Source of the DNA: an uncultured virus (IMG/VR IMGVR_UViG_3300033149_002562)
Lineage: Duplodnaviria > Heunggongvirae > Uroviricota > Caudoviricetes
Virus record (IMG/VR): IMGVR_UViG_3300033149_002562
DNA: 20,000 nucleotides
Reading direction: 5' to 3' (one strand)
Shown here: piece by piece, positions 937 through 20,000 of the stretch
Position numbering within the stretch: position 1 is the first letter of the stretch
Layout: each line of letters starts with the position of its first letter
The notes under the pieces: generated by a model
Told to the model about the DNA's origin: nothing
Databases searched by the model: none
Seen by the model: only the letters and a program-made list of their open reading frames with translations
Program-made: the position numbers and the translations under genes

Positions 937-3153
937 TTACGCACCACCCGGAAGCGGTAGCGGCCCGGTGTCCATCACCGGTAGGCTAGTGCAGCGGCAG
1001 AAACATCGTTCTTGCGCCGGTAGCGAGTAATGACCTGGGTACGGAGCGGGATACCCCCCCACGTCAAAGTCCTGCGAAATGGGGATGGGGGGGCTGGCGT
1101 GCAGCCCCGCGTGAGTGTCTCGCGTGTAGCTGTCAAGCACGGCCTCCCACCGCTTGTGCGTCGCCACGCCGCTTGACTCCAACTCCAACAATTGAGCGTG
1201 ACCGCCAGCGTTCCAAGCTGCCGTAGACTCCGTGCGAGCTATGTTCATCAGACGAAACGTCGCGGTATCACCGCCGAATATGTCGTCGATCCGCGTGCCA
1301 AGCTGATAGCTGTTCTCGCCAGCCAGCAGCCCCTCACTAAGGCTATCGACCATCGCCTGCCTTGTCGTCTGCTGAATCTCGCCCCAGTACGGGCGGCTCA
1401 AAATCGTCTGTATCTCGGCCAGGATGGCGTCAATCACGTATTGCGGGAGCTGCGGCTGCTTGAGCCACGGTGTCGCTGAGCGATCTGTAAACGCGGCCAT
1501 CTGTACGGCCCCAAGTACAGCGGTCTCGACCATCACTGGGCGGAGCGCCGTAGCCCACCGCTCCGTCCAAGTCTCAGTTGGGAACACGGCATCGACCAGG
1601 CTTGACGCGTCGCGGCCCGTGGCCGACCGCAGACGATCCTTCACGTCGTCGCGCTGCTCGTCAAACAGCCGCTGAAGCACGCGGAGCATTGCCCGCTCCC
1701 GCTCGCCGTGTGATTTGAGCCAGACGGATTGCGTGTACGCCAGCCCCTTTGTCTTCGATTGAGCCGACTTGTCGCCGCCAGTCCGAACTGGCTGCGGCAT
1801 GACGTTCGCCGGAGTGAAGATCAGGTCACCGCCAGAATCCAGGTCCGGTAATCCAGCGAGCGATGGGATAATGTCACGAATCTCCTGTCGGCTTACGGCC
1901 GCGTATTTCGCAGCCATGCTTAGCTCGGAGATAGTCGTCAACCGGTCGTCGGGCTCGTAACTGTCCATCCACACGACCAGCCGCTCGCCGGGTCGCGCGA
2001 AATGCGGCGCGACGAACTTCGACATCATCTGCGACAACAATTCGACCTTCGGATTCACACAGAAGTCTGCAAAATGCTTGCGGGCCTCAGCGGCGCTCGC
2101 TCGATTCAGCCCTTCGATCTCGCCGATCACTGCCGGGTTCGTGCCGTAACCCTGAGTGATCCGAGCCTTCGTTGTGCGACCAGAATCGAGCCAATCCATT
2201 TCTCGCATCGTTCGCGTGATAGGCTTCGCGTCCCGAACGAGACGATCAAAGATCAGCGGGTGATTCGCGTTGTCAACGCTCCCGTACCACTGCATGATCC
2301 CGTCGTAAATCTCCTGCCGCTGCTCCTTTTCGAGTAGGGGCAGCTCTCCCTCCTCGCCTTCGCCAGATATGTCGCCGATGTAGATGCCAAGGCCAGGAAA
2401 AATGCCCTGACTGAATCCCTTGTGCTGCGCCTTCTGGATCGCCTCGTCCGAGAGAATTGCACGACTCTGAGCTTGGGTCGGGCCGTAGGCCGACAACGGA
2501 TTGCGAGGATCGACATAATAGAAGGGCGCGACCTCCTCGGGCGGCCGCTCGATTGGTGCGCCAGCTCCGCCTGGCGTAATAAGCCAGGAAGCGAAAGCCT
2601 TGTCCGCCGTATGCCTAGCTGTTACCCACGATGGCGGTAGCGGCCAAATCACTTGCCGCCCGTCGACTTTCGTTATCCACCAGTACGCCCACCCGCTCAA
2701 CTCCAATGAGGTGACGGTGAAGCAGAACAAATGCCAGCCGACCTGCATCGGGTTCGGGTCCGCCAGAGCGTCAAGTAACGGATGCGATTCGTACACCTCA
2801 ACGTTGTCGCTGACCGCCTTGACCAGTCCTGGCGCACGGCGATGCTCCGCCTTGGTCATCGGACGGCTAGCGGTCCCAGCGGACCGCTTGGTTGGCGTGG
2901 AACGCAACCGCCCGACGTGGATGGGCAGCCCAGCTATCGTCTGTGCAATCGGGCGAATCGAGGCGTAGGGCCAGCCGGAGTAGTGTGCTAGCTGGTCCCG
3001 ATCAGCGCCGCCGCTGCCGAATATCGACGGAGACGCGCCCGTGTAGACATGGGGCATCGCGGCCTCAGCCCCCACCTCGGCCTTCGCGGCAAGTTGAATC
3101 GCCATGCTGCGAGACCGGGCAGCCGTGTGGCAATCCACTAACATTGTGCTCAT
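937..3153 (-). CDS. Portal protein (HK97-like) fused to a Mu gpF / SPP1 gp7 head morphogenesis domain
   Basis: N-terminal portal motifs (YASIRPIAQTIAGLP, HPLLDALADPNPMQ, G.AYW, IWPLPPSWV, final EIR...GL..L..GGD). C-terminal gpF motifs (IARTEST.A.NAG, KRWEAVLDSYTRDTH, F.VGG...YPG...LPA.ERCFCRC). ATGA coupling to the upstream ORF; SD GGGAGG. Confidence 0.9.
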   Translation of the reverse strand: MSTMLVDCHTAARSRSMAIQLAAKAEVGAEAAMPHVYTGASPSIFGSGGADRDQLAHYSGWPYASIRPIAQTIAGLPIHVGRLRSTPTKRSAGTASRPMTKAEHRRAPGLVKAVSDNVEVYESHPLLDALADPNPMQVGWHLFCFTVTSLELSGWAYWWITKVDGRQVIWPLPPSWVTARHTADKAFASWLITPGGAGAPIERPPEEVAPFYYVDPRNPLSAYGPTQAQSRAILSDEAIQKAQHKGFSQGIFPGLGIYIGDISGEGEEGELPLLEKEQRQEIYDGIMQWYGSVDNANHPLIFDRLVRDAKPITRTMREMDWLDSGRTTKARITQGYGTNPAVIGEIEGLNRASAAEARKHFADFCVNPKVELLSQMMSKFVAPHFARPGERLVVWMDSYEPDDRLTTISELSMAAKYAAVSRQEIRDIIPSLAGLPDLDSGGDLIFTPANVMPQPVRTGGDKSAQSKTKGLAYTQSVWLKSHGERERAMLRVLQRLFDEQRDDVKDRLRSATGRDASSLVDAVFPTETWTERWATALRPVMVETAVLGAVQMAAFTDRSATPWLKQPQLPQYVIDAILAEIQTILSRPYWGEIQQTTRQAMVDSLSEGLLAGENSYQLGTRIDDIFGGDTATFRLMNIARTESTAAWNAGGHAQLLELESSGVATHKRWEAVLDSYTRDTHAGLHASPPIPISQDFDVGGYPAPYPGHYSLPAQERCFCRCTSLPVMDTGPLPLPGGA

Positions 3154-3510: not shown

Positions 3511-5301
3511 CTAAGCGCGACGAATCAACGGCCCTGCCCCAAATAGCCGCTCCGCAAGCGATTCTCTCCCCGCCTCCCGCCTTGCCTTCGCCTGCTTTTC
3601 AGTCTCGCCCGACGTGTAGATCAACGGGCGACCAGCCACCATGCCGTGGCGTCGCATCCGCCACAGAGCCAGGCAGAGCGCGTCGCTGCGGTCAGGCGAG
3701 TGACCGAGCATCTGCCGAAGGTTCATACCGCCTTTCTGCCCAGCCCGCTGGTCCTTGGGCGGCAGGTACATCCGCCCCTCACCGTCCGTCAATCGAGGGA
3801 TGCGAGATAGCTCGTCGATGAGCGCTTGCACCTCGGATCGCAGTCCGGCGTGGTCCGGTAAGGTGAACGCCCGTTGCCATCGCCGCCTACCGTCCGCCGT
3901 CTCAGCCGACACCCATCGCGTTGCCTCACGCGGCCCATTGGGATTCGACGAATCGACCAACTCCAAACCAGGATCGATCCATCGGGCGGCTTCGCCGTAC
4001 AGCGCGGCTCGCAGATTCTGGTATCGGCCTTTCAGCTTCGCGGGTAGCTTGCCGCCGAACCGCAATCCGCCGATACTCTTCAACTCTTTGCGAAGCGGGG
4101 CGACAATTGCGGACAACCCGCTCCCCGCCAAGTCCACCAATACGTTACGCCACGGCACATCCCATCGCTCTTGCATCTCGCGAGTGATATCCAGCAGCCT
4201 GCTCGTTTGCGGGATACCGTCCGAGTCCCGAGGGATGCCAGCACCGCTCAGCATCCGAATGTCAAGCAGCCCGATCCGATCCACCACCACCCAGGCGGCG
4301 TTGTCCGCCCCGCCCTCGAACGAGTCAATCCCCATGAATCGCGGGCACGACTTGCGAAACTCGGCGTCTACCATCGAGTGAGCCTCACGGGCGAACCGGA
4401 GCCACGCCTCGGGTACTATCACCTCCTCCTCTGTCCCTTGCGGCAGCACGCCATGCAGGCACGCCGACACCCAAAACGGCGGCTGCTCTTCTAACCGATG
4501 ACAGTAGCTCGGATAGGTCATCAGCCCAGGTAGTACTGGCTGCGGACACGGGCCCTTGCGGCCCGCCTTGTCCCACGCGAGCCCCAATGCAACGTTCGGC
4601 GTGCGGCGGCCGTCAATCCGAATCACGCGGCGACGATATTTGCCCGGTCTAAACTCGTCCGGTAACGACGGCGAGCGGATGATGTCGGCGTAATACCCCG
4701 ATAGCTTCAGCGGATTGCCGATGCAAAGGATGCGATGGGCTAGCCCTTCAATCGCACGGCACCGCTCTGAATCCACGCCGCTGCTTTCGTCGATCACGAC
4801 CAGCACAGATGGGTTGTCCTCGTCGCCTGGCAGGTGCGTGCCCATCATGTTCTCGACTTGCGTGACCGAGGCGAAACGAATCCAGTCGTCCTCGTAAGGC
4901 TTGCCGTCCGCCCCGATGCGACGGATAAGCAGGTGCTTTTTGTCCAGCCCGAGCGGGATTGCCGTCGTCCGCAACGCACGACCGAACTCCCCCCATATCG
5001 CCTGCTTTATCTGCCCGAGTGACGTAGACGTGACGACCACCTTGCACGGGAACCGGGTGCAATAGAACCACAACGCGGCCCGGGCCGCGATCCAGTCCTT
5101 GCCCGATTCGACGCACGACGACACCGCCGTCAAGTAGTTGTCGCGCACGGACAACAGAATGTCCCGCTGGCCCTCCCAGTAGCGAATGCCAGGCCACACG
5201 GCCGCCAGAAACGCTTCGGGATCGTCTCGCCAACGCTTTAGAATTGCTTGCGGAGCTGGGTCATTCTGCCGCGTCGCTGACGAGTCATTTGCCACCTCCA
5301 T
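3511..5301 (-). CDS. terL: Terminase large subunit
   Basis: Adenine-binding YWEGQ, Walker A variant SCVESGKD, Walker B VLVVIDES, motif C GNP, nuclease MGID...D and SPDRSDAL. Start refined to the ATG at 5301 (GGAG SD upstream), overlapping the end of TerS. Confidence 0.92.
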   Translation of the reverse strand: MEVANDSSATRQNDPAPQAILKRWRDDPEAFLAAVWPGIRYWEGQRDILLSVRDNYLTAVSSCVESGKDWIAARAALWFYCTRFPCKVVVTSTSLGQIKQAIWGEFGRALRTTAIPLGLDKKHLLIRRIGADGKPYEDDWIRFASVTQVENMMGTHLPGDEDNPSVLVVIDESSGVDSERCRAIEGLAHRILCIGNPLKLSGYYADIIRSPSLPDEFRPGKYRRRVIRIDGRRTPNVALGLAWDKAGRKGPCPQPVLPGLMTYPSYCHRLEEQPPFWVSACLHGVLPQGTEEEVIVPEAWLRFAREAHSMVDAEFRKSCPRFMGIDSFEGGADNAAWVVVDRIGLLDIRMLSGAGIPRDSDGIPQTSRLLDITREMQERWDVPWRNVLVDLAGSGLSAIVAPLRKELKSIGGLRFGGKLPAKLKGRYQNLRAALYGEAARWIDPGLELVDSSNPNGPREATRWVSAETADGRRRWQRAFTLPDHAGLRSEVQALIDELSRIPRLTDGEGRMYLPPKDQRAGQKGGMNLRQMLGHSPDRSDALCLALWRMRRHGMVAGRPLIYTSGETEKQAKARREAGRESLAERLFGAGPLIRRA

Positions 5302-5968
5302 CCGTCTGCTCCTGCTCGCCATTCTTGCCGTTCGGCCCAGGTAGCCGAGGTGTGCCGTCCGGCCCACGCACCATCTCGGTGCCGTCCGCCGACAGCACGA
5401 CTGGTAGATTCTCGGGCCTCGCGGCCTCCTGCGCTACCTGGATCAAGTTGAATACGGTCGTCTGCCCACCCTCGGGCTGACGCCCTCCCTCCGGTTCTCT
5501 ATGCAGACCGTACAACTTGTCGTGCTCCGCTAACGCGAGCCGAGCCTCACTCAGATAGCGGGGGTCGCCCAATCGCTCGATCAGCTCCGTGCGAGTCTTC
5601 GTCACCGGCCACTTGTCCGGCGGCAGTCCCTCCACGGCCTCCCGCTCCTGGATCACCTTGCGAGCGGGCTCTTTTGACCGCTCGTACTCTTTCCAACACT
5701 CCTCGACAATCTTGCGCAGTTCGGCCGCCGCTTGTGCCCGAGCCAATTCGACCTTCGCTGGCACGGCGTGACGCCACGCGGCCATCGCCTGAGAGAAATA
5801 CCGCTTGACGCTCCGCAGACTGACGCCAAGCTGCCGAGCGATCTGCGTATCGCTCATGCCGTAGTCGCGCCGAAGATGCACCGCCTCCGCCACCCTGGCC
5901 TCGCGTTGCGCCATCGCATGACGCACGGATGGCGGCAATCGACTCGATCTTTTGGGATACGACGGCAC
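5285..5968 (-). CDS. Probable terminase small subunit (N-terminal HTH)
   Basis: HTH GMSDTQIARQLGVSLRSVKRY, helical body with GDPRYL...KLYGL; directly upstream of TerL. Start GTG 5968 or ATG ~5914, not 6136. Confidence 0.7.
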   Translation of the reverse strand: MPSYPKRSSRLPPSVRHAMAQREARVAEAVHLRRDYGMSDTQIARQLGVSLRSVKRYFSQAMAAWRHAVPAKVELARAQAAAELRKIVEECWKEYERSKEPARKVIQEREAVEGLPPDKWPVTKTRTELIERLGDPRYLSEARLALAEHDKLYGLHREPEGGRQPEGGQTTVFNLIQVAQEAARPENLPVVLSADGTEMVRGPDGTPRLPGPNGKNGEQEQTDGGGK

Positions 5969-6211
5969 AGTTAGTACCACCCACAAGCGGGGGAAATGCC
6001 TGAATCTTACCTGGATTCTAGCGGACTGACCCAGGTATGAGCAACGGCTGCTAGCCTCGCAGGCATATTCTTTTAATATGCCAATGACGTAACTCCCTTG
6101 CCACAAAAGAGTTATGTCAAGGCGATTTGCGGTCAATTGCCTGCGAGAATCGGTTATAATAGGGAGCGTAGTCGGTAATTTGACGCTCTTTTTCGATCAG
6201 GAGAACGTGCG
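5969..6211. promoter_or_regulatory. AT-richer divergent control region
   Basis: Inverted repeat GGCATATT-N5-AATATGCC (6062-6082), plus-strand TATAAT (6155-6160), minus-strand TTGACA (6120-6115); genes diverge on both sides. Confidence 0.6.
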
Positions 6212-7261: not shown

Positions 7262-7332
7262 GAGTCCGTAGCCCAGCGGTTAGAGCAAGAGACTTATAAT
7301 CCCTTGGCGGGGGGTGACTCCCTCCTGGCCTA
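7262..7332 (+). tRNA. Degenerate tRNA-Ile, anticodon TAT (probably a pseudo-tRNA)
   Basis: TAGCCCAGCGGTTAGAGCA D-arm, AGAGA-CTTATAA-TCCCT anticodon arm, GGGGG-TGACT-CCCTC T-arm (TC missing from TTCGA). Mismatches in the acceptor, D and anticodon stems; no CCA. Confidence 0.65.
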
Positions 7333-7392
7333 CTTACCGTGTAATGGCATTATTGACCGTATCTACGGCCGCACAAGCAATAAGAAACAAAG

Positions 7393-12308: not shown

Positions 12309-12659
12309 ATGTCGTCTCGACAACATAACGACTACGCTGAAGGATTTTGCCGCCTATGGCGGACAACTTATCCTGACGACATGCCCGAACCGATACGTGA
12401 GTACGTATTCGCGCCACCACGTAAATGGCGGTTTGACTTGTGCTGGCCAGACGCGAAATTGGCCGTCGAGATCGAGGGACACGGCCCTGGCGGCCTCGGC
12501 CGCCATCAGCGACGGGCTGGCTTCACCCGAGACGTGGTGAAGTACCGCGAGGCGGTGAAGTTGGGCTGGCGACTGTTACGCTATACGAGTGATGAAATGC
12601 GGACGCGACCGGTTCAGGTGATCGAGGAGGTGGCGGAGATGTTATGGCAGTTGCTATAG
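12309..12659 (+). CDS. Vsr/DUF559-like PD-(D/E)XK endonuclease
   Basis: REYVFAPPRKWRFDLCWP..KLAVEIEG...GRH.R..GF..D..KY..A..LGWRLLRYT. Confidence 0.85.
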   Translation: MSSRQHNDYAEGFCRLWRTTYPDDMPEPIREYVFAPPRKWRFDLCWPDAKLAVEIEGHGPGGLGRHQRRAGFTRDVVKYREAVKLGWRLLRYTSDEMRTRPVQVIEEVAEMLWQLL

Positions 12660-12671
12660 AAGGGATGCACG

Positions 12672-13175
12672 TCATGGCAGTCGCAGGCGGCGATTACGCC
12701 GATACGTTTCAAGCACCGCCTGAGAAGAATACAGGTCCGGCAGATATGACTGGCGAAGCTCGGCGAGCCGCCGCCAATCGGTAGTCGCCTGATCGGTATG
12801 CCACTTGGCCCATAGCAGCAGGCCGAAGCGTTCGTCACGATCACGGGGCAGATCCGGCAGCCCGTCGGCCCACGAGGATGGAGCCCCCCCGTGCCCCAGC
12901 CACTCGTGGCACTCGACGCATAGCATGATAAGGTTGCACGATTCATCACTGCGACCCGCACCGCCGATGCCGTGCGCGAGGTGGTGTATCTCGCAGCGGA
13001 TCACCCGCTTGGATCGGCCGCACACCTGACAGTGATCCCAAAGGTAATGGAGCTCGACCAGAGTACCAGGCGACTTGATGGGCGGCCTGTGATACTGCCC
13101 GAGCGTAACCGCCGTCCGGTGATCGTCGAAAGCAAGTCGGCTGCGGTCAAGGAATGTGCCTCGCATAAGCCTCAC
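12672..13175 (-). CDS. HNH endonuclease
   Basis: CQVC...EIHH...GRSD...NLIMLCVECH; GTGA overlap with the csrA stop. Confidence 0.8.
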   Translation of the reverse strand: MRLMRGTFLDRSRLAFDDHRTAVTLGQYHRPPIKSPGTLVELHYLWDHCQVCGRSKRVIRCEIHHLAHGIGGAGRSDESCNLIMLCVECHEWLGHGGAPSSWADGLPDLPRDRDERFGLLLWAKWHTDQATTDWRRLAELRQSYLPDLYSSQAVLETYRRNRRLRLP

Positions 13176-13372
13176 TGCTTCTTCGACGATGACGGTGCTT
13201 CACACCCGTGTATTGCCTCGTACACTTCTCGGCGGTGAACCGGGACTTCGTTCGGAGCCTCGATCCCGAGTCGCACTTTGTCTCCTCGGATCGCAAGGAT
13301 GACAACGGTCACGGCCCGGTCACCCTCGTTTATGATGATCGACTCATTCTCTTTTCGTTGCAATACCAACAT
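13172..13372 (-). CDS. csrA: Carbon storage regulator CsrA/RsmA
   Basis: MLVLQRKENESIII...IRGDKVRLGIEAPNEVPVHRREVYEAI; SD AAGGAGG. Confidence 0.95.
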   Translation of the reverse strand: MLVLQRKENESIIINEGDRAVTVVILAIRGDKVRLGIEAPNEVPVHRREVYEAIHGCEAPSSSKKQ

Positions 13373-13499
13373 CGTCAGTCCTCCTTACTGAGAGTACGTA
13401 AAGCAGAAACGCGGCGGCTCGGCGCACCTGTTATCGTGGCCGCACCGCCTGGTCCGGGTCGGTACGGCATTGCCTCTCGTTTCCTCCTCATGGGTTAGT

Positions 13500-13744
13500 G
13501 TTGACGAAACGCAACCGAACCGAGCCGCCGCGAGTGGCCCTGGCCCGACCTAACCGGGCTGTACCCAAACGGTAGCAGAGCCAAAGCCGACGGCGCAAAC
13601 CAAACCATCGGCGATCGCCGTGACGACGAATCACGGCGGAGACCATTTAGCTCAAAGGGAGGTCGGGGGCAAGCGTCCGCCGTGCTCGCCAAGGGTCGCT
13701 CCTGCTGCTCTCCGTCACGCCTCCACTCCATCGGCCCGACCTCT
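13500..13744 (-). ncRNA. Candidate structured RNA (GGA-rich domain plus three-way junction) upstream of csrA
   Basis: Multiple stems with G-U pairs that form only on the minus strand; five GGA motifs; begins about 6 nt after TGTGCTATAAT. Confidence 0.55.
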
Positions 13745-13749
13745 CTGCT

Positions 13750-13760
13750 ATTATAGCACA
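13750..13760 (-). promoter_or_regulatory. Extended -10 promoter
   Basis: TGTGCTATAAT is a perfect TGnTATAAT; it overlaps the stop codon of 13751-14092. Confidence 0.7.
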
Positions 13761-14092
13761 ATCGCATGATACCAGTCGTTATCGCGGAGCCATCGTAACT
13801 CCGCGTCGATTGCGTCCGCTCGCCGCCTACATGGCCCGAGAATCACGGCGGCTACCAACATTCTGGCCTGCCATTCACAGGGCCATCGGCGAGTGAACGC
13901 TGCAAGCCAAGAGTCGTCTCGCACGCGACGACGGATCGCGTGAAATATCCACCGCAGCAGTCGATTGACCGGCTCGACGTGCGACACTCTCCGCTTCGTC
14001 GTCGTGCCGAGATCGTGCAACTCGTGAAGTTCGCCGCTGTCAATGAACTTCAGGCTACCGTCCGGCTCGACAGTGATGGTCAACTCGTGCAC
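13751..14092 (-). CDS. Conserved hypothetical protein of the DUF1257/DUF2997 module
   Basis: ITVEPDGS...LG....RRVSHVEP...W.A....LGP..RRADAIDAE..WL; GTG start with GGGGAG SD. Confidence 0.7.
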   Translation of the reverse strand: MHELTITVEPDGSLKFIDSGELHELHDLGTTTKRRVSHVEPVNRLLRWIFHAIRRRVRDDSWLAAFTRRWPCEWQARMLVAAVILGPCRRRADAIDAELRWLRDNDWYHAIVL

Positions 14093-14096
14093 GGAA

Positions 14097-14279
14097 CTAT
14101 CTCCCCTGTCGCACGTGAGCGTCCTGCCGATAATACTCCGGCGTCAAGCGGTCCTCTACGACCACGCCGAATGCTCGTTCAAGTTCGGCGGTCACGTCCT
14201 TACACGACCGTCCCGCGACGCCCTTGACCTCGATGATCGGGACGCCGTACTTGTCGATTGTGACTATGACCTGCTCCAT
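14097..14279 (-). CDS. DUF2997 family protein
   Basis: MEQVIVTIDKYG...IEVKGVAGRSCKDVTAELERAFG......TPEYY; SD AGGAG. Confidence 0.85.
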   Translation of the reverse strand: MEQVIVTIDKYGVPIIEVKGVAGRSCKDVTAELERAFGVVVEDRLTPEYYRQDAHVRQGR

Positions 14280-14307
14280 GTCTCGGTCTCCTATGCTTGT
14301 GATGATG

Positions 14308-14757
14308 CTACCGCACACAGCGGAGCTTTATCTGATGCGTCTGCGGATCATATTGCTCGCTGACACGCCACCCGCGACGCCGCATGGTCTTTTTCGTGAC
14401 TTCGGCCCCGTATTGCTGCCTCAGCCGCTCGCAACCGGAGCCGAGCAGCTTGCGGATACGCTGCCCCGGGCCATAAAAGTCGTAGATCGGGACGAGACGC
14501 CCCCTGTCGTCGCGAACCAAACCGATCTCATATTCGCAATCGGGCACGCGAATCGCATGTTCGCACTTGCCGTACTGTTCGGGCTTGATACCGTGATGGT
14601 AGGCAGCATCGGCCGCGTGATAGTCGTTCACCCATCGGCCGTACCATGCCCAGGTCTTCTGCGCTTCGCAGAACTCCAACCCGAGCTTTTCGCACGCCCG
14701 TTTGAGAGCGTCGATGTCTTTGACCTCTAGCTCACACTTGGCGACGTGGCTCATCAT
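14308..14757 (-). CDS. DUF1257 (Ycf35-like) protein
   Basis: MSHVAKCELEVKDIDALKRACEKLGLEF...YEIGL...YDFY...LRQQYGAE...GWRV; SD AGGAG. Confidence 0.85.
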   Translation of the reverse strand: MMSHVAKCELEVKDIDALKRACEKLGLEFCEAQKTWAWYGRWVNDYHAADAAYHHGIKPEQYGKCEHAIRVPDCEYEIGLVRDDRGRLVPIYDFYGPGQRIRKLLGSGCERLRQQYGAEVTKKTMRRRGWRVSEQYDPQTHQIKLRCVR

Positions 14758-14826
14758 TTATTCTCCTGCGTTTCGAGAAACGGCCAATAGACCTTCTCCT
14801 ACCTGCTCCATTATAACGCACTCACG

Positions 14827-15771
14827 CTATTCATCGTCGCCGAACGTGATCCGGCGGCTAGGCATCGCAGCGACCAACTCGGTGGCCTTGGCCTCTACCT
14901 CCGCAAGTGCCGCCCCAGCGACGGCCCGTAGATCGTCCTTGTTTTTCTTCAGCGCATCGTAATCGAAGCCGTCCATGACCTCCCGGGCCTTGACGACAAG
15001 CTGCTTCAGTTCGTCATCGTCAAGCACGTTGCGTTTATCGAACGTACTCAGAAACCGCTCTAGCCGCTCGTAGTTGCCTGGATGCAACTTCTTTCGCTTC
15101 CCATCCGCGTCCGGTGTCAATGCCCCGGTGAGCACCCCAAGCAGTTTGCCGAACGCAAACCGCAGCGCAGCTTTCACCTCGTGAGCTTCATTCTCCAAGT
15201 CTTTGCGAATGCGCTCTAAGTTGGCTTGGGCCACAACCGCCCCAACCTTACTCTCGCCAGGCGGCGTAAACTCGATAAGTCGCCTCTCGATCCAGAACTT
15301 CGACCGATATCGCTCGGGGGTGTCGTACACTGACGGATCGTACAACTCTCTGAGTGACTCCCGCTCGGCATCGGCCGAAAGTCGATTCTCGTACAGCACG
15401 GCAGCGGCGTCCGCGTGAGCCATCGCCTGCGACTCCACCTCGTCGAGTCGCTCGAATACCTCCTCGACGGACGTAACCGGAATCGCGTAGCGACCCGGCC
15501 CAAGCCGAAAGTCCACCGCAATGCAATCACGCAACCAACTCTTCGTTTCGATACGAAGCCGATTGTAAGCGTCGTGGTACTCGTTCTCGATGATTTTGCG
15601 GTTGGACCTGACTCGCGATTGATCGGCCTTCTGTTCATCATCGGTCGCCCCGACCCGGCGAACCTCCGCCTCGCCGGGCCGAAACGTGCGCCGCATTCCA
15701 GGCTGATGGAACGTCAGCTCCAAGATCACCGTGTTGTCTAGCAGCTTGTTGTTGTTGACGGCACTATTCAT
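14827..15771 (-). CDS. DUF3150-like protein
   Basis: G.YAIP...VEEV..RL...LYDPSVY...RSKF.IE pattern followed by a long helical region; start refined to MNSAV (SD AGGAG). Confidence 0.6.
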   Translation of the reverse strand: MNSAVNNNKLLDNTVILELTFHQPGMRRTFRPGEAEVRRVGATDDEQKADQSRVRSNRKIIENEYHDAYNRLRIETKSWLRDCIAVDFRLGPGRYAIPVTSVEEVFERLDEVESQAMAHADAAAVLYENRLSADAERESLRELYDPSVYDTPERYRSKFWIERRLIEFTPPGESKVGAVVAQANLERIRKDLENEAHEVKAALRFAFGKLLGVLTGALTPDADGKRKKLHPGNYERLERFLSTFDKRNVLDDDELKQLVVKAREVMDGFDYDALKKNKDDLRAVAGAALAEVEAKATELVAAMPSRRITFGDDE

Positions 15772-15840
15772 TCTCGTTTCTCCTGTGACAAGTGAAAACG
15801 AATGTGAAAACGAACTCGCCTCTTCTTTGTCAGAGGGCAA

Positions 15841-17391
15841 TCAGACAGCTACCGCTCGGCCGGTTCTTTGCATCGGCTGCCGATATACGCCAGGCTCCTG
15901 GGCTGAAAGGTACCGCCCGTCGGCCTGGCGACGCAATCGCTCGATCTCCTCGGCCTCAATCCTGGCCACGGGAATGATATACTTCGCCGCCTCCTTCAGC
16001 GAAATCTGCATCGTCCATGCTTTCTCGACGCACCGCCGCACGTTACGACCGACCCAACCGTCGTCCGCTCCGTCTGGCAACGAACCGATTACGTCTGGGT
16101 AACGGCTAAGCCACACCTGCCAGATAGCCTTCAACTCGTCCGGGCCAGGCAAATCGAAAAAGAACGTATCGACGAACCTAGACCGCATCGCGGCCGACAG
16201 GCCATCGACCGAGTTACTCGTCGCCATCCATACCGTCTCGTTGCCGCCTACGGCTTCGATCACCTTTAACGCCGTTCTGAGCGCTTGTTGCGATTCACCC
16301 ACAAGCGATCCCTGCATCGCGCCGAGGTCCAACCGAATCACGGTGCGGTCGAACTCTGCCGCACACGCTTTGCAATACGCCGATTTGCCAGCCCCCGGCA
16401 CGCCAAGAAGCATCACGCCGTACACGTCGTGATCTTCCATCCAGGTAAGCAGTTGGCCCTCCTGGTCTTGATTTACGCCGCTCGTGTCTTGACGCGCGGC
16501 TAAGCCCGTCTTCTCCACTTCATCTAGCCATACTAATAACCGAACCGGGCGGCGTCCGGCGATAATTCGCCTGCCATACTCTTTGATTGGCTCCAAGCCA
16601 CCGAGATCGGCGAATCGTTCACCACCGCGATAGACCGATAGCCCCCGCGTCTGCTCGATCACGGCCCGATTCGTCGCCCACAAATGGTCTAGGTCGATCC
16701 CCTTCGGCCGCAGGGCCATCGCCACTGCCTGCTCGGCTGCGAACGCTGACAGACCGGTGGTCGCCTCCACGGCCCCAGCCCGCTCAGCCTTCGTGAGCTT
16801 CTTTCGCTTCGACTGGCCGGTGCCACCGCACGACCCGCACTTCAGCCCGCTTTTAACGCCCTGACCGTCGCACTTGCCACACACACGCGCGGCCGCGTCC
16901 AATTCATCGATGATCTCGCCGAGCTGCTCAGCGTCCGGGTAAGGCTCGTCCAATACCACCACGTCGTCCTTAAGCTGCGGCGGCAGCTCGGCCGTGTGCC
17001 CTAGTAAGATCAGCAGCCGCCCGTCCGCCTTGAATTGGTCGCGGAGGTTGGCGATACCCTGCGTCACCATCGGGTCCGGCTTGCCGTCCCGGACAGTCAG
17101 CATATCGGCACCGTGCATGTACGCCACGGTACCCGGCGGCATCCTCACCGCCTCGACCAGAAAGCCCGGCGGCGAAAACGACTCATCAGTAAACTTCTGC
17201 GCAACAGTTTTGCCGCCTTCGTTGACTGGCCGAACGCCAGCTACGATGTCCCACTGAACCGCTGGAGCCTCCGCAAACGCCCCGTTCACGCCTCGGACCA
17301 ACGCCTGTGGGTCGGGCGTGGAAATCCAGATCAACGGAACGCCAGCGCGACGTGCGTGCTTCAATTGGTCCTTGAAAGTCATCACACTCAT
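15841..17391 (-). CDS. Ycf46-like AAA+ ATPase with rearranged Walker motifs and a DnaJ-type zinc finger insert
   Basis: Degenerate N-terminal P-loop domain (RAGVPLIWI.T.D; LPPQLKDD), FADLGGLEPIK, VWLDEVEK, GVPGAGKS, RLDLG...GSLVGES, MATSN, SRF..FFFDLP; start refined to 17391 (SD AGGAG). Confidence 0.9.
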   Translation of the reverse strand: MSVMTFKDQLKHARRAGVPLIWISTPDPQALVRGVNGAFAEAPAVQWDIVAGVRPVNEGGKTVAQKFTDESFSPPGFLVEAVRMPPGTVAYMHGADMLTVRDGKPDPMVTQGIANLRDQFKADGRLLILLGHTAELPPQLKDDVVVLDEPYPDAEQLGEIIDELDAAARVCGKCDGQGVKSGLKCGSCGGTGQSKRKKLTKAERAGAVEATTGLSAFAAEQAVAMALRPKGIDLDHLWATNRAVIEQTRGLSVYRGGERFADLGGLEPIKEYGRRIIAGRRPVRLLVWLDEVEKTGLAARQDTSGVNQDQEGQLLTWMEDHDVYGVMLLGVPGAGKSAYCKACAAEFDRTVIRLDLGAMQGSLVGESQQALRTALKVIEAVGGNETVWMATSNSVDGLSAAMRSRFVDTFFFDLPGPDELKAIWQVWLSRYPDVIGSLPDGADDGWVGRNVRRCVEKAWTMQISLKEAAKYIIPVARIEAEEIERLRRQADGRYLSAQEPGVYRQPMQRTGRAVAV

Positions 17392-17416
17392 CTTCGTTTC
17401 TCCTATAGTCAAGATT

Positions 17417-17758
17417 CTATCGCAATCCGCGCCGCGGACTAATGCGAGCAACCTTCTTCACGACTTTCAGTTCAACGACACCCCAATCCGGTGGCCCCGC
17501 TCTATACAACCGAATCGTTCCCGGCTGCAATTCGTCGTCGGACTCCAACGGCTCGTAATCAAGCAGCAGGTACCAGCCGTGGTCTCTCACGTTGGTAACC
17601 CTTGCCACAAATCGCCGCGGTTCCGCATCGGGCGTAACCTCTAACACCGCGACATGATCGAGCGGCCCAACGCGAGTGTGATAGCTCTCGGCAGGACGGA
17701 TGCCCATATCCCGGAGCTGCCGATTACGAATCTGACGGCTAGTTTTGGTCGCAATCAT
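17417..17758 (-). CDS. Hypothetical protein
   Basis: SD AAGGAG; ATGA coupling with the upstream ORF. Confidence 0.65.
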   Translation of the reverse strand: MIATKTSRQIRNRQLRDMGIRPAESYHTRVGPLDHVAVLEVTPDAEPRRFVARVTNVRDHGWYLLLDYEPLESDDELQPGTIRLYRAGPPDWGVVELKVVKKVARISPRRGLR

Positions 17759-17967
17759 CGCTTCGCTCCTTCCAGTCTAGTAAATACAACAACACCGTGC
17801 CCATCAATGATCCGATGGCAAGGAGTGTTACGGTTTCTACAAAGATAGGATACATAAAGACTACTCCAGTTATTGCATCGTGAGAAAATGCCGTCGCAGC
17901 CCGTGCATACCACCTGGTCGGCGAACCTGCTGATCCGAGGGGTCGTCATGACGCGCAGGTCGCGCAT
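17755..17967 (-). CDS. Small Cys-rich hypothetical protein
   Basis: CTGC...C...C...C; start ATG 17967 (GAGG SD) or 17982. Confidence 0.5.
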   Translation of the reverse strand: MRDLRVMTTPRISRFADQVVCTGCDGIFSRCNNWSSLYVSYLCRNRNTPCHRIIDGHGVVVFTRLEGAKR

Positions 17968-17978
17968 GGTCTCTTTCC

Positions 17979-18666
17979 TCATCGGATCACACCCACGCCA
18001 GGTGGATCGGTCCAACCCGCGGGCAGCTTGGCACCGAAGAGGTAGAGCCACCGCCCGACCTTTCCGACGCGGAATCCTTCTGGCAACTTGCTGCTGCGAA
18101 GATCGAGGTAACCACCTACGTTACCGATGCGGGAGCCCCTGGGCAGCTTGCAGCCGCGTAGATTGAGGTCGCCCCCCACGTCGCCGACGCAAAAGCCGCC
18201 GGAGGGTTTGCAGCCGCCAAGGTAAAGTGAGTCGCGTACATTACCGATGCGAAAGCCCGCGGGCAACTTGGCACGGGTGAGGTAGAGCGATCCGCCCACG
18301 TTCCCGATACGGAAGCCGGCAGGCAGATCGCAGTACGAAAGGTAAAGTGATCCGTTTACGTTCCCGATGCGAAACCCCTCAGGCAGCTTACAACGGTGAC
18401 AATCGAGGGAACCGCCGGAGTGTTTCAGAATCAACTTCAGTTGTGCCGCGGTTGACTCTTTCACGCGCCACCAGCGCAGGACTCGCACTCGCCGGTGACA
18501 ACGAACCCCGGGCACGCCACTTTTGCAGTAGGGTTTGTCAGTCGCGGTCTCGATCTCCGCAACGACGGGCCCCGTCCCGGCAGCGTACAGCCCGCCGGTT
18601 ACTGCAATGTAGGCTCCGTTGCCCGGCACGTCCTGCCAACTGGAGTAGCTTCAGTCCGATCATCAT
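17979..18666 (-). pseudogene. 20-aa-repeat (LRR-like) solenoid protein, copy A, apparently frameshifted at the 5' end
   Basis: Six full LPxGFRIGNVxGxLxLxxxK repeats. The SD-led ATG at 18666 is one base out of frame with the body, whose frame is closed upstream by TGA at 18651-18653. Confidence 0.55.
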
Positions 18667-18715: not shown

Positions 18716-19288
18716 TTATGCCTGTACCATCCTGGCGAGCGGCAAACATGGACAAAACGTCCACCGCGGGTCTTGGAGCAACGTAAGCACTACGTCGCTT
18801 GCGTCGAGGCCCGCCGACCACACCTCGATAGTCACGTGGTCGAATACCGTACCCGGCCCGCCGCCGTCACGATCAACGATCAATTCGGGCCAGTGATCAT
18901 CAATAATCTGCTCGGCAATCGACTGCCACGCGTTCGGTACCTGGAGTAACACGCGGTCGTAATCCGCTGTGAGCCGCTCGGCGAAGTGCCACCCCGCATC
19001 CCATGCCTGTGCGTCCGCGGGATCGAGGTCAGCCTGCACCTGGCCGTAGTATTCGTCAGGAGTAAACCACTGTAGGTCGTCGCGCCGCTCGGGCGACAGG
19101 TATGGGTTGTCTGTATATAACAATCCCTCAGCGTGAGCCTCCTGCCCCTCACTGAACCACCAGGCGTAATTCGCCTCGGATTCAATATACTTCGGGTCAA
19201 GACTGCCCGGCTTGCCGCTCTTGGCGTCGGCATAAGCAGCCTTGATCTCTTCGCCCGTCCACGGGCGTTTCGCGTAGTGACTACTCAT
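18716..19288 (-). CDS. Hypothetical protein with an Rmf/CrpP-like motif
   Basis: WFSEGQEAHAEG....DNPY ... AQAWDAGW; SD AAGGAG. Confidence 0.6.
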   Translation of the reverse strand: MSSHYAKRPWTGEEIKAAYADAKSGKPGSLDPKYIESEANYAWWFSEGQEAHAEGLLYTDNPYLSPERRDDLQWFTPDEYYGQVQADLDPADAQAWDAGWHFAERLTADYDRVLLQVPNAWQSIAEQIIDDHWPELIVDRDGGGPGTVFDHVTIEVWSAGLDASDVVLTLLQDPRWTFCPCLPLARMVQA

Positions 19289-19345
19289 TTTCGTCTCTCC
19301 TTTGCGTTAAGGTTTACCCGGAACCGCCGGGTGCGATCAAAACGG

Positions 19346-20000
19346 TTAGCGAACCACGCGCACGCCAGGAGGATCGGTCCAGCCATCGGGCAGCTTGGCA
19401 CCGGCGAGGTAGAGCGTGCCGCCTACGCCGCCCAGCCGAAAACCCTTGGGCACCGTACTACCGCGAAGGTCAAGCTCGCCACCCACGTTGCCGATGCGGA
19501 ACCCCTCGGGGAGCTTCGCGCCGCGAAGATCGAGCTTGTAGCCCACGTTGCCGATGCGGAAGCCGGCAGGCAGATCGCAGTACGAAAGATCAAGGTTGCC
19601 GCCCACTCTCCCGATGCGGAAACCCTCGGGTAGCTCGCAGCGTTGTAGAAACAATGATCCCCACACGTTCCCGATCCTGAATCCCTCGGGCAGCTTCGTC
19701 TCGCACAAGTCAAGGTTGTTGCCCACGTTCCCGATGCGAAAGCGCTTGGGCAGTTTGGCGCGGCGCAAATCGAGTGAGCCGTCTACGTTCTCGATGCGGA
19801 AACCCTCGGGTAGCTCGCTGTGTTGTAGGAACACTGATCCGTCCACGTTACCAATGCGGAAGCCCTCGGGCACCTTGGCACCGGAAAGGTCGAGATAGCC
19901 GCCGGAGTGCTTGAGAATCACATCGAGTTGCGCCGCGGTCGATTCCTCGACGCGCCACCATCGCAGAACCCGCACGCGCCGGTGACACTGAACGCCGAGC
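19346..20000 (-). CDS. 20-aa-repeat (LRR-like) solenoid protein, copy B, N-terminus beyond window edge
   Basis: Frame is open to the edge (LGVQCHRRVRVLRWW...); eight full 20-aa repeats; same N-flank and WTDPPGV C-cap as copy A. Confidence 0.85.
   Translation of the reverse strand, partial: LGVQCHRRVRVLRWWRVEESTAAQLDVILKHSGGYLDLSGAKVPEGFRIGNVDGSVFLQHSELPEGFRIENVDGSLDLRRAKLPKRFRIGNVGNNLDLCETKLPEGFRIGNVWGSLFLQRCELPEGFRIGRVGGNLDLSYCDLPAGFRIGNVGYKLDLRGAKLPEGFRIGNVGGELDLRGSTVPKGFRLGGVGGTLYLAGAKLPDGWTDPPGVRVVR

Follow-up and report, generated by a model that had tools for sequence, protein, structure and literature searches.

The window, by which we mean the whole stretch of 20,000 nucleotides analysed here, is phage DNA, as indicated by a portal gene, a large terminase gene and matches to PHROG families. 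It also carries genes for a DNA methyltransferase, a DUF5131 protein, an AAA ATPase and a DUF2997 protein. On the minus strand, an operon runs in the order AAA ATPase, 337-codon ORF, 149-codon ORF, DUF2997 and a conserved 113-codon ORF. The last of these is followed by a gap of 378 nt (13373-13750), then by csrA and finally by an HNH gene. The principal features are given below.

937-3153, minus strand, portal protein fused to a Mu F-like domain
3511-5367, minus strand, large terminase
7262-7333, tRNA-Ile
12672-13175, minus strand, HNH endonuclease gene (Pfam HNH, E 4.4e-05), the last gene of the cassette, its start overlapping the csrA stop by 4 nt
13172-13372, minus strand, csrA, 66 codons (Pfam PF02599, E 8.6e-22; phrog_9500, E 1.8e-18)
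13373-13750, minus strand, non-coding gap of 378 nt, larger than any other in the window and read as a putative 5' csrA leader
13751-14092, minus strand, 113-codon ORF, conserved in phages and of no assigned function, which served as anchor in the search for phages related to this one
14097-14318, minus strand, DUF2997 gene
15841-17451, minus strand, AAA ATPase gene, the first gene of the operon

The window is tightly packed. Intergenic DNA makes up approximately 8.6% of it on a crude gene map, most gaps are shorter than 90 nt, and a gap of 378 nt is unusual in this setting. A second sizeable gap, of 220 nt, was observed on the minus strand at 17759-17978, upstream of a 113-codon ORF, and is comparatively AT-rich near 17880-17800. 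The minus-strand genes at 17979-18629 and 19346-19999 consist of 60-nt (20-residue) units in tandem, which number 15 in total and have 63 to 77% identity to a reference copy and no Pfam or PHROG match. Furthermore, a 17-nt ribosome-binding word that ends in ATG, AGGAGAAACGAGAATGA, is common with close variants to three minus-strand genes (15768-15784, 17388-17404 and 19285-19301). This shared word suggests that the likely starts move to 15771 for the 337-codon ORF and to 17391 for the AAA ATPase. Within the 5' part of the 337-codon ORF, on the minus strand at about 15650-15690, we also noted a hairpin of 17 bp, 11 of them G-C, whose loop reads GCGGAGG.

The gene downstream of the gap had been annotated as csrA, and Pfam, PHROG and alignment to solved structures all identify it as a genuine member of the CsrA/RsmA family. 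The PF02599 match covers residues 1 to 54 of the phage protein, which aligns to the solved CsrA/RsmE structures 1Y00 and 2JPP and retains the MLxLxR and VHRxE motifs. Residues L4 and R44 of CsrA have been named as critical (PMC7652899). Among named proteins, those nearest to the phage CsrA are encoded by planctomycete metagenome-assembled genomes (62-75% identity), and these relatives would fit the planctomycete host considered in the initial annotation. We know of no RNA partner of CsrA described in planctomycetes. Two peculiarities of the phage protein were noted. Residues Q5, E8, A27 and N41 differ from all 18 aligned relatives, in which these positions are otherwise invariant, and two of the changes lose a lysine. 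Additionally, it has a 3-residue insertion in common with only four short metagenomic CsrA proteins (P0009-P0011 and P0013), the closest relatives of the phage CsrA.

Promoter-like sequence lies at the upstream edge of the gap and at two other intergenic sites in the window.

13760-13750, minus strand, promoter-like box of the extended -10 type, TGTGCTATAAT, which overlaps the TAA stop codon ending the 113-codon ORF and has a predicted transcript start near 13743
6155-6160, plus strand, TATAAT box in a divergent intergenic gap, facing the next gene
14810-14815, minus strand, TATAAT box in front of the 149-codon ORF

A perfect extended -10 element had been reported over the end of the 113-codon ORF, and its letters are present there as described. 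The sequence TGNTATAAT occurs a single time on the two strands of the window (40 kb of strand sequence) against an expectation of 0.08, and was encountered at least once in 15 of 200 shuffles. Its position coincides exactly with the 5' boundary of the largest non-coding gap, and it is oriented towards csrA. Four TATAAT boxes are found in the window; one is inside the tRNA, and the other three, which have similar flanks, are each intergenic and directed at the following gene, in a window of which only about 8.6% is intergenic. No -35 box was recognisable at any of these three sites. Among the features claimed for the flagged stretch, only the extended -10 box exceeds chance. A promoter at 13760-13750 is thus plausible from its sequence, and the reading of the box as one is reasonable; that it is active, and that transcription starts near 13743, we infer from the box itself. 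Separately, the 55-nt leader that follows the 14810 box contains three GGA, the Shine-Dalgarno sequence among them.

The 90 nt downstream of the predicted start had been flagged in the initial annotation as a CsrA-binding RNA.

13654-13743, minus strand, flagged element, here taken for the 5' portion of the csrA leader, closed by a stem of 9-12 bp and containing four GGA that are mostly unpaired as well as a 7-bp hairpin whose loop includes GCGGAC

The headline claim was of a stand-alone sponge resembling CsrB or RsmZ, that is, an RNA of about 90 nt (13743-13654) that would end after its closing stem and CCUUU and titrate CsrA through five GGA motifs. Sponges of this type expose many ANGGA motifs in the loops of short hairpins, are small transcripts with an intrinsic terminator, and bind several CsrA dimers with high affinity in a GGA-dependent manner. 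The GGA density of the small Rsm RNAs is in a range comparable to that of the flagged element. In favour of the claim, the element has a promoter-like box and adjoins csrA, and its 67 enclosed nucleotides hold five GGA, of which four are mostly unpaired and one is placed in a stable hairpin loop. However, the individual structural elements do not rise above background. The claimed 9-bp stem is present, with GAGGTCGGG (13743-13735) complementary to CCCGACCTC (13667-13659), and it can be extended to 12 nt at 92%, after which comes CCTTT. Perfect 9-mer inverted repeats with loops of up to 100 nt nevertheless number 27 in the window (13.2 ± 5.6 in 100 shuffles), so that a single 9-bp stem is unremarkable. 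Folding of the 96-nt RNA gave -34.9 kcal/mol against -35.6 ± 3.6 kcal/mol in shuffles (z +0.21), with 113 of 200 shuffles as good.

The count of GGA motifs proved similarly ordinary. The five that had been claimed are all present, but their number is at the composition background. Across the whole window, 67-nt windows with at least five GGA form five clusters on the minus strand and two on the plus strand. Five GGA were reached by 585 of 2000 (29%) dinucleotide shuffles of the 85-nt element, and 384 of 2000 shuffles of the 378-nt leader contained a 67-nt window with at least five. The first 100 nt are G-rich (40 G), and this richness by itself yields GGA. The 5' GGA cluster is therefore not distinguishable from composition. 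Two of the motifs had also been assigned to hairpin loops. The 7-bp hairpin GGCGAGC/GCTTGCC, with loop ACGGCGGAC, appears in both the centroid and the MEA structure, whereas the 3-bp CCG/TGG hairpin is not predicted; one of the five GGA therefore lies in a hairpin common to the two structures, against the many loop-exposed GGA of a sponge. The presence of GGA in hairpin loops was also considered as a discriminator and was dropped, as 30% of all minus-strand GGA qualify in DNA of this GC-richness. On stems of at least 5 bp, GGA occurs in loops in 2 of 10 cases in the leader and in 97 of 324 on the whole minus strand. These proportions, together with GGA numbers equal to the composition expectation, give no specific indication of CsrA binding.

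The 3' end of the element was equally unlike that of a discrete small RNA. The stem that closes the 67 nt is followed by CCTTT, which offers three U and does not resemble a terminator, and no intrinsic terminator was found in the leader by a scan of the whole window, or on the minus strand between 12500 and 15000 by a scan of that region. The phage does possess one canonical example, the only strong terminator in the window.

647-613, minus strand, canonical intrinsic terminator of 16 pairs, 12 of them G-C, followed by TTTTTGTT, between two small genes of the structural region

With no terminator in the way, a transcript from 13743 should continue into csrA. From this run-through we infer that the element is a cis-acting leader and no separate RNA of the CsrB/RsmZ type; its location at 13373-13743, directly upstream of csrA, fits a 5' untranslated region. 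An Rfam search, which had been proposed as a check for a CsrB/RsmZ-like RNA, returned no match to such a family: across 13000-14300, cmscan with all 4227 families and a limit of E 10 yielded no more than two matches, both unrelated and ascribed to chance, and at the gathering threshold the whole window yielded only the tRNA. ARAGORN found no tRNA-like match in the region of the element. Taken with the background-level GGA count, loop presentation and fold, these results make a stand-alone sponge unlikely.

The possibility that the stretch is translated was also considered. An automatic gene caller predicts a 78-codon ORF (13731-13495) that spans the element, its ATG at 13731 is preceded by GAGAGG, and an identical 78-residue protein is on record from 3 contigs. 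This frame nevertheless scores -0.04 per codon, below all 16 reference genes, and its GC content by codon position is flat. It has no Pfam or PHROG match, and no homologue among 1.84 billion representatives except two repeat-type matches. More generally, the ORFs of the leader had coding scores between -0.03 and -0.18 per codon, compared with +0.07 to +0.28 in the 16 reference genes, and lack the GC3 excess typical of real genes. The longer, 90-codon version of the 78-codon frame matched only itself and two repeat-type sequences among the 1.84 billion representatives. A decayed gene was sought by tblastx of the leader against all related loci fetched, which returned noise only. That the element belongs to a protein-coding gene is accordingly very unlikely, and the gap is treated as non-coding.

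A shorter frame at the 3' end of the gap deserves separate mention.

13470-13375, minus strand, possible upstream ORF of 31 codons, with a TGA stop 2 nt before the csrA ATG and a negative coding score

It is preceded, near 13488-13468, by a diverged copy of the ribosome-binding word found at three other genes of the phage. Its translation is uncertain because the coding score is negative.

Structure prediction for the full leader gave a fold marginally better than that of shuffled sequences (z -1.43; 8 of 100 as good), and four pairings stand out.

13638-13616, minus strand, hairpin in the leader with no U-tract after it
13684-13676 with 13640-13632, minus strand, alternative 9-nt pairing in the leader, of which 13684-13676 is the loop of the 7-bp hairpin
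13532-13520 with 13422-13410, minus strand, perfect 13-bp helix around the start of the upstream ORF
13389-13373, minus strand, hairpin TCAGT-AAGGAGG-ACTGA, with the csrA Shine-Dalgarno sequence in a 7-nt loop on a 5-bp stem

The 9-nt alternative pairing and the 8-nt hairpin at 13638-13616 are mutually exclusive. Such an arrangement, like the 13-bp helix, might in a long leader with several predicted helices suggest a cis-regulatory switch unrelated to CsrA, such as an attenuator or a ligand- or protein-sensing element. The hairpin at 13638-13616 is not followed by a U-tract, however; the leader has no match to an Rfam riboswitch or leader family and no homologues, and repeats of such length are common in the window. 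A switch of this kind is thus very unlikely. Short internal repeats within the leader were also examined as a possible duplication, and were not read that way as they are not colinear.

The hairpin at the csrA ribosome-binding site bears more directly on CsrA. It resembles a CsrA binding site: the Shine-Dalgarno sequence is displayed in the loop as AAGGAGG with a predicted unpaired probability of about 0.85-0.95, the value for the first GGA being 0.87-0.96. The leader therefore carries, as a look-alike in sequence, the CsrA site over the Shine-Dalgarno that characterises an autoregulatory csrA leader.

We sought relatives of the locus through an alignment built on the 113-codon ORF, whose relatives show 30-56% identity. 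This gave 42 related loci, L002-L043, comprising 2 from genomes, 6 from viral contigs and 34 from metagenomes; one of the genome loci (L003) matches over only 14 residues. Neither csrA nor any similarity to the leader was found in these 42 loci. Among the 41 with a full match to the 113-codon ORF, 36 reach 600 nt or more downstream, and the next gene begins within -86 to +12 nt of the stop in 30 of these 36. The six other, larger gaps listed are at least partly artefacts of the ORF filter; one locus inspected from each of two larger gaps had such an artefact or an earlier start. Because the related loci lack them, the gap, csrA and the HNH gene constitute an insertion specific to this lineage, placed where the operon ends. 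In one related phage (L025, 2430-3676), the gene that follows the homologue of the 113-codon ORF encodes a long array of repeats of approximately 29 residues with a consensus like YVKEQTPEICLAAVQQNG.AL.

No close DNA relative was found among 50,697 phage records, and viral-contig searches with the 113-codon ORF, the 149-codon ORF or the HNH protein, each used singly, gave no relatives. CsrA used singly identified one locus in viral contigs, L001, in which csrA directly follows another gene. A wider set of viral csrA genes was taken as the best 80 of 224 viral-contig relatives. In these best 80 of 224, blastn found no similarity to the leader, and neither an HNH nor a 113-codon neighbour was present. 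The gap upstream of csrA in this same set has a median of 12 nt and is at least 200 nt long in 1 of 79 cases; a long csrA leader is thus not typical of viral csrA genes. Shine-Dalgarno hairpins occur at 13 of 76 distinct start sites of viral csrA genes, which is no enrichment over the background of 24%. A covariance model built from the element alone matched only itself in 636 kb, made up of the 80 viral csrA loci, L001 and the 42 related-phage loci, with a best foreign E of 1.2. The lack of any similar RNA in the best 80 of 224 viral csrA loci, L001 and the 42 related-phage loci argues further against a sponge. The sole other copies of the element on record are identical and are found on 3 contigs. 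A search for sequencing runs that contain the locus found no RNA run; the single DNA run that it gave, with a 0.05 share of sampled words, covers nothing within 12600-16000 except a part of csrA (13093-13314), and so misses the leader.

These comparisons give weight to a plainer explanation, namely that the 378 nt are a spacer or insertion scar carried in with csrA and the HNH gene and have no role at the RNA level. On this account csrA may be read through from the upstream operon, whether or not the TATAAT box is active. All structural and motif statistics stand at chance level, the gap has no relatives, and its G-rich element yields GGA unaided. Conversely, a spacer does not account for a unique extended -10 placed exactly at the edge of the gap, in a pattern matched by the two other intergenic TATAAT boxes. 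It also leaves aside the perfect 13-bp helix and the loop-displayed Shine-Dalgarno sequence, as well as the unusual size of the gap in a phage with so few long ones. We regard a spacer as a serious rival, albeit a rather unlikely one.

The most likely reading, which we hold with moderate confidence, is that a csrA-HNH cassette specific to this lineage has its own promoter and an untranslated leader of about 370 nt, of which the flagged 90 nt form the 5' end. The cassette would stand at the end of the phage operon and would comprise promoter, leader, possibly the 31-codon upstream ORF, csrA and the HNH gene. Transcription would start near 13743 from the extended -10 promoter over the stop codon of the preceding gene, and would proceed into csrA with no terminator intervening. 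The phage CsrA, and probably that of the host, may bind the AAGGAGG displayed at the ribosome-binding site of csrA, and perhaps GGA sites farther upstream as well. By analogy with csrA of Escherichia coli, such binding at the leader would limit the protein's own translation.

The E. coli csrA leader mediates autoregulation and contains several GGA, one of which overlaps the Shine-Dalgarno sequence (Yakhnin et al. 2011, summarised in PMC7652899). The phage leader is like it in being apparently untranslated, in lying directly upstream of csrA and in holding several GGA with one over the Shine-Dalgarno sequence. Furthermore, the SELEX consensus for CsrA has an ARGGA core (PMC7652899), and the phage Shine-Dalgarno GGA is presented in its hairpin loop as A-A-GGA, which fits that core. 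The phage leader, however, has no sequence similarity to that of E. coli, is much longer, may include an upstream ORF coupled to csrA and is not enriched in GGA above composition. A precedent for such coupling is iraD, for which repression by CsrA through a coupled short upstream ORF has been reported (PMC5574718). In both cases a short ORF ends close to where the controlled gene starts, and the leader has GGA sites; translation of the phage ORF is unsupported by codon statistics. Given the match of the Shine-Dalgarno loop to the ARGGA core and the report on iraD, autoregulation of csrA through its leader is plausible and a reasonable hypothesis.

The element may also be compared with CsrB, CsrC, RsmX, RsmY and RsmZ. 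Like these RNAs, the element has a promoter-like box of its own and lies beside a gene of the CsrA family. It differs in having neither a terminator nor an Rfam match, in presenting one GGA in a stable loop, in having no relative among the loci searched and in being contiguous with the csrA coding region. The initial annotation had envisaged a self-contained Csr circuit built on either a sponge or an autoregulatory leader; the latter option fits the position of the element, the former is unlikely. A more elaborate version, in which the GGA-rich 5' domain and the ribosome-binding site both bind CsrA, so that one mRNA would autoregulate phage CsrA and also sequester the CsrA of a planctomycete-like host early in infection, appears improbable.

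Phage-borne csrA genes have already been described. CsrA/RsmA homologues are encoded by many phages in GenBank and IMG/VR (Campa et al. 2021, PMC8450108; Sobrero and Valverde 2020, PMC7366521), with csrA present in 30 of 2517 phage genomes (PMC7366521). The present phage is like those in carrying csrA. It differs in that csrA is preceded by a 378-nt gap, while the accessible parts of those two reports describe no associated RNA partner or leader. A literature search over titles and the opening of abstracts retrieved neither a phage-encoded CsrA-binding RNA nor a planctomycete Csr RNA, which is not proof that none is in print.

The current evidence goes no further than a promoter followed by a long non-coding leader, an arrangement that is in itself ordinary. 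Phage-borne CsrA is known and poorly understood, as is the way in which a phage sets the dose of so global a regulator. Should the leader bind CsrA, this locus would represent a compact case, of particular interest in a host lineage for which we know of no described RNA partner of CsrA, of a phage that brings with it both a regulator and the site of its feedback.
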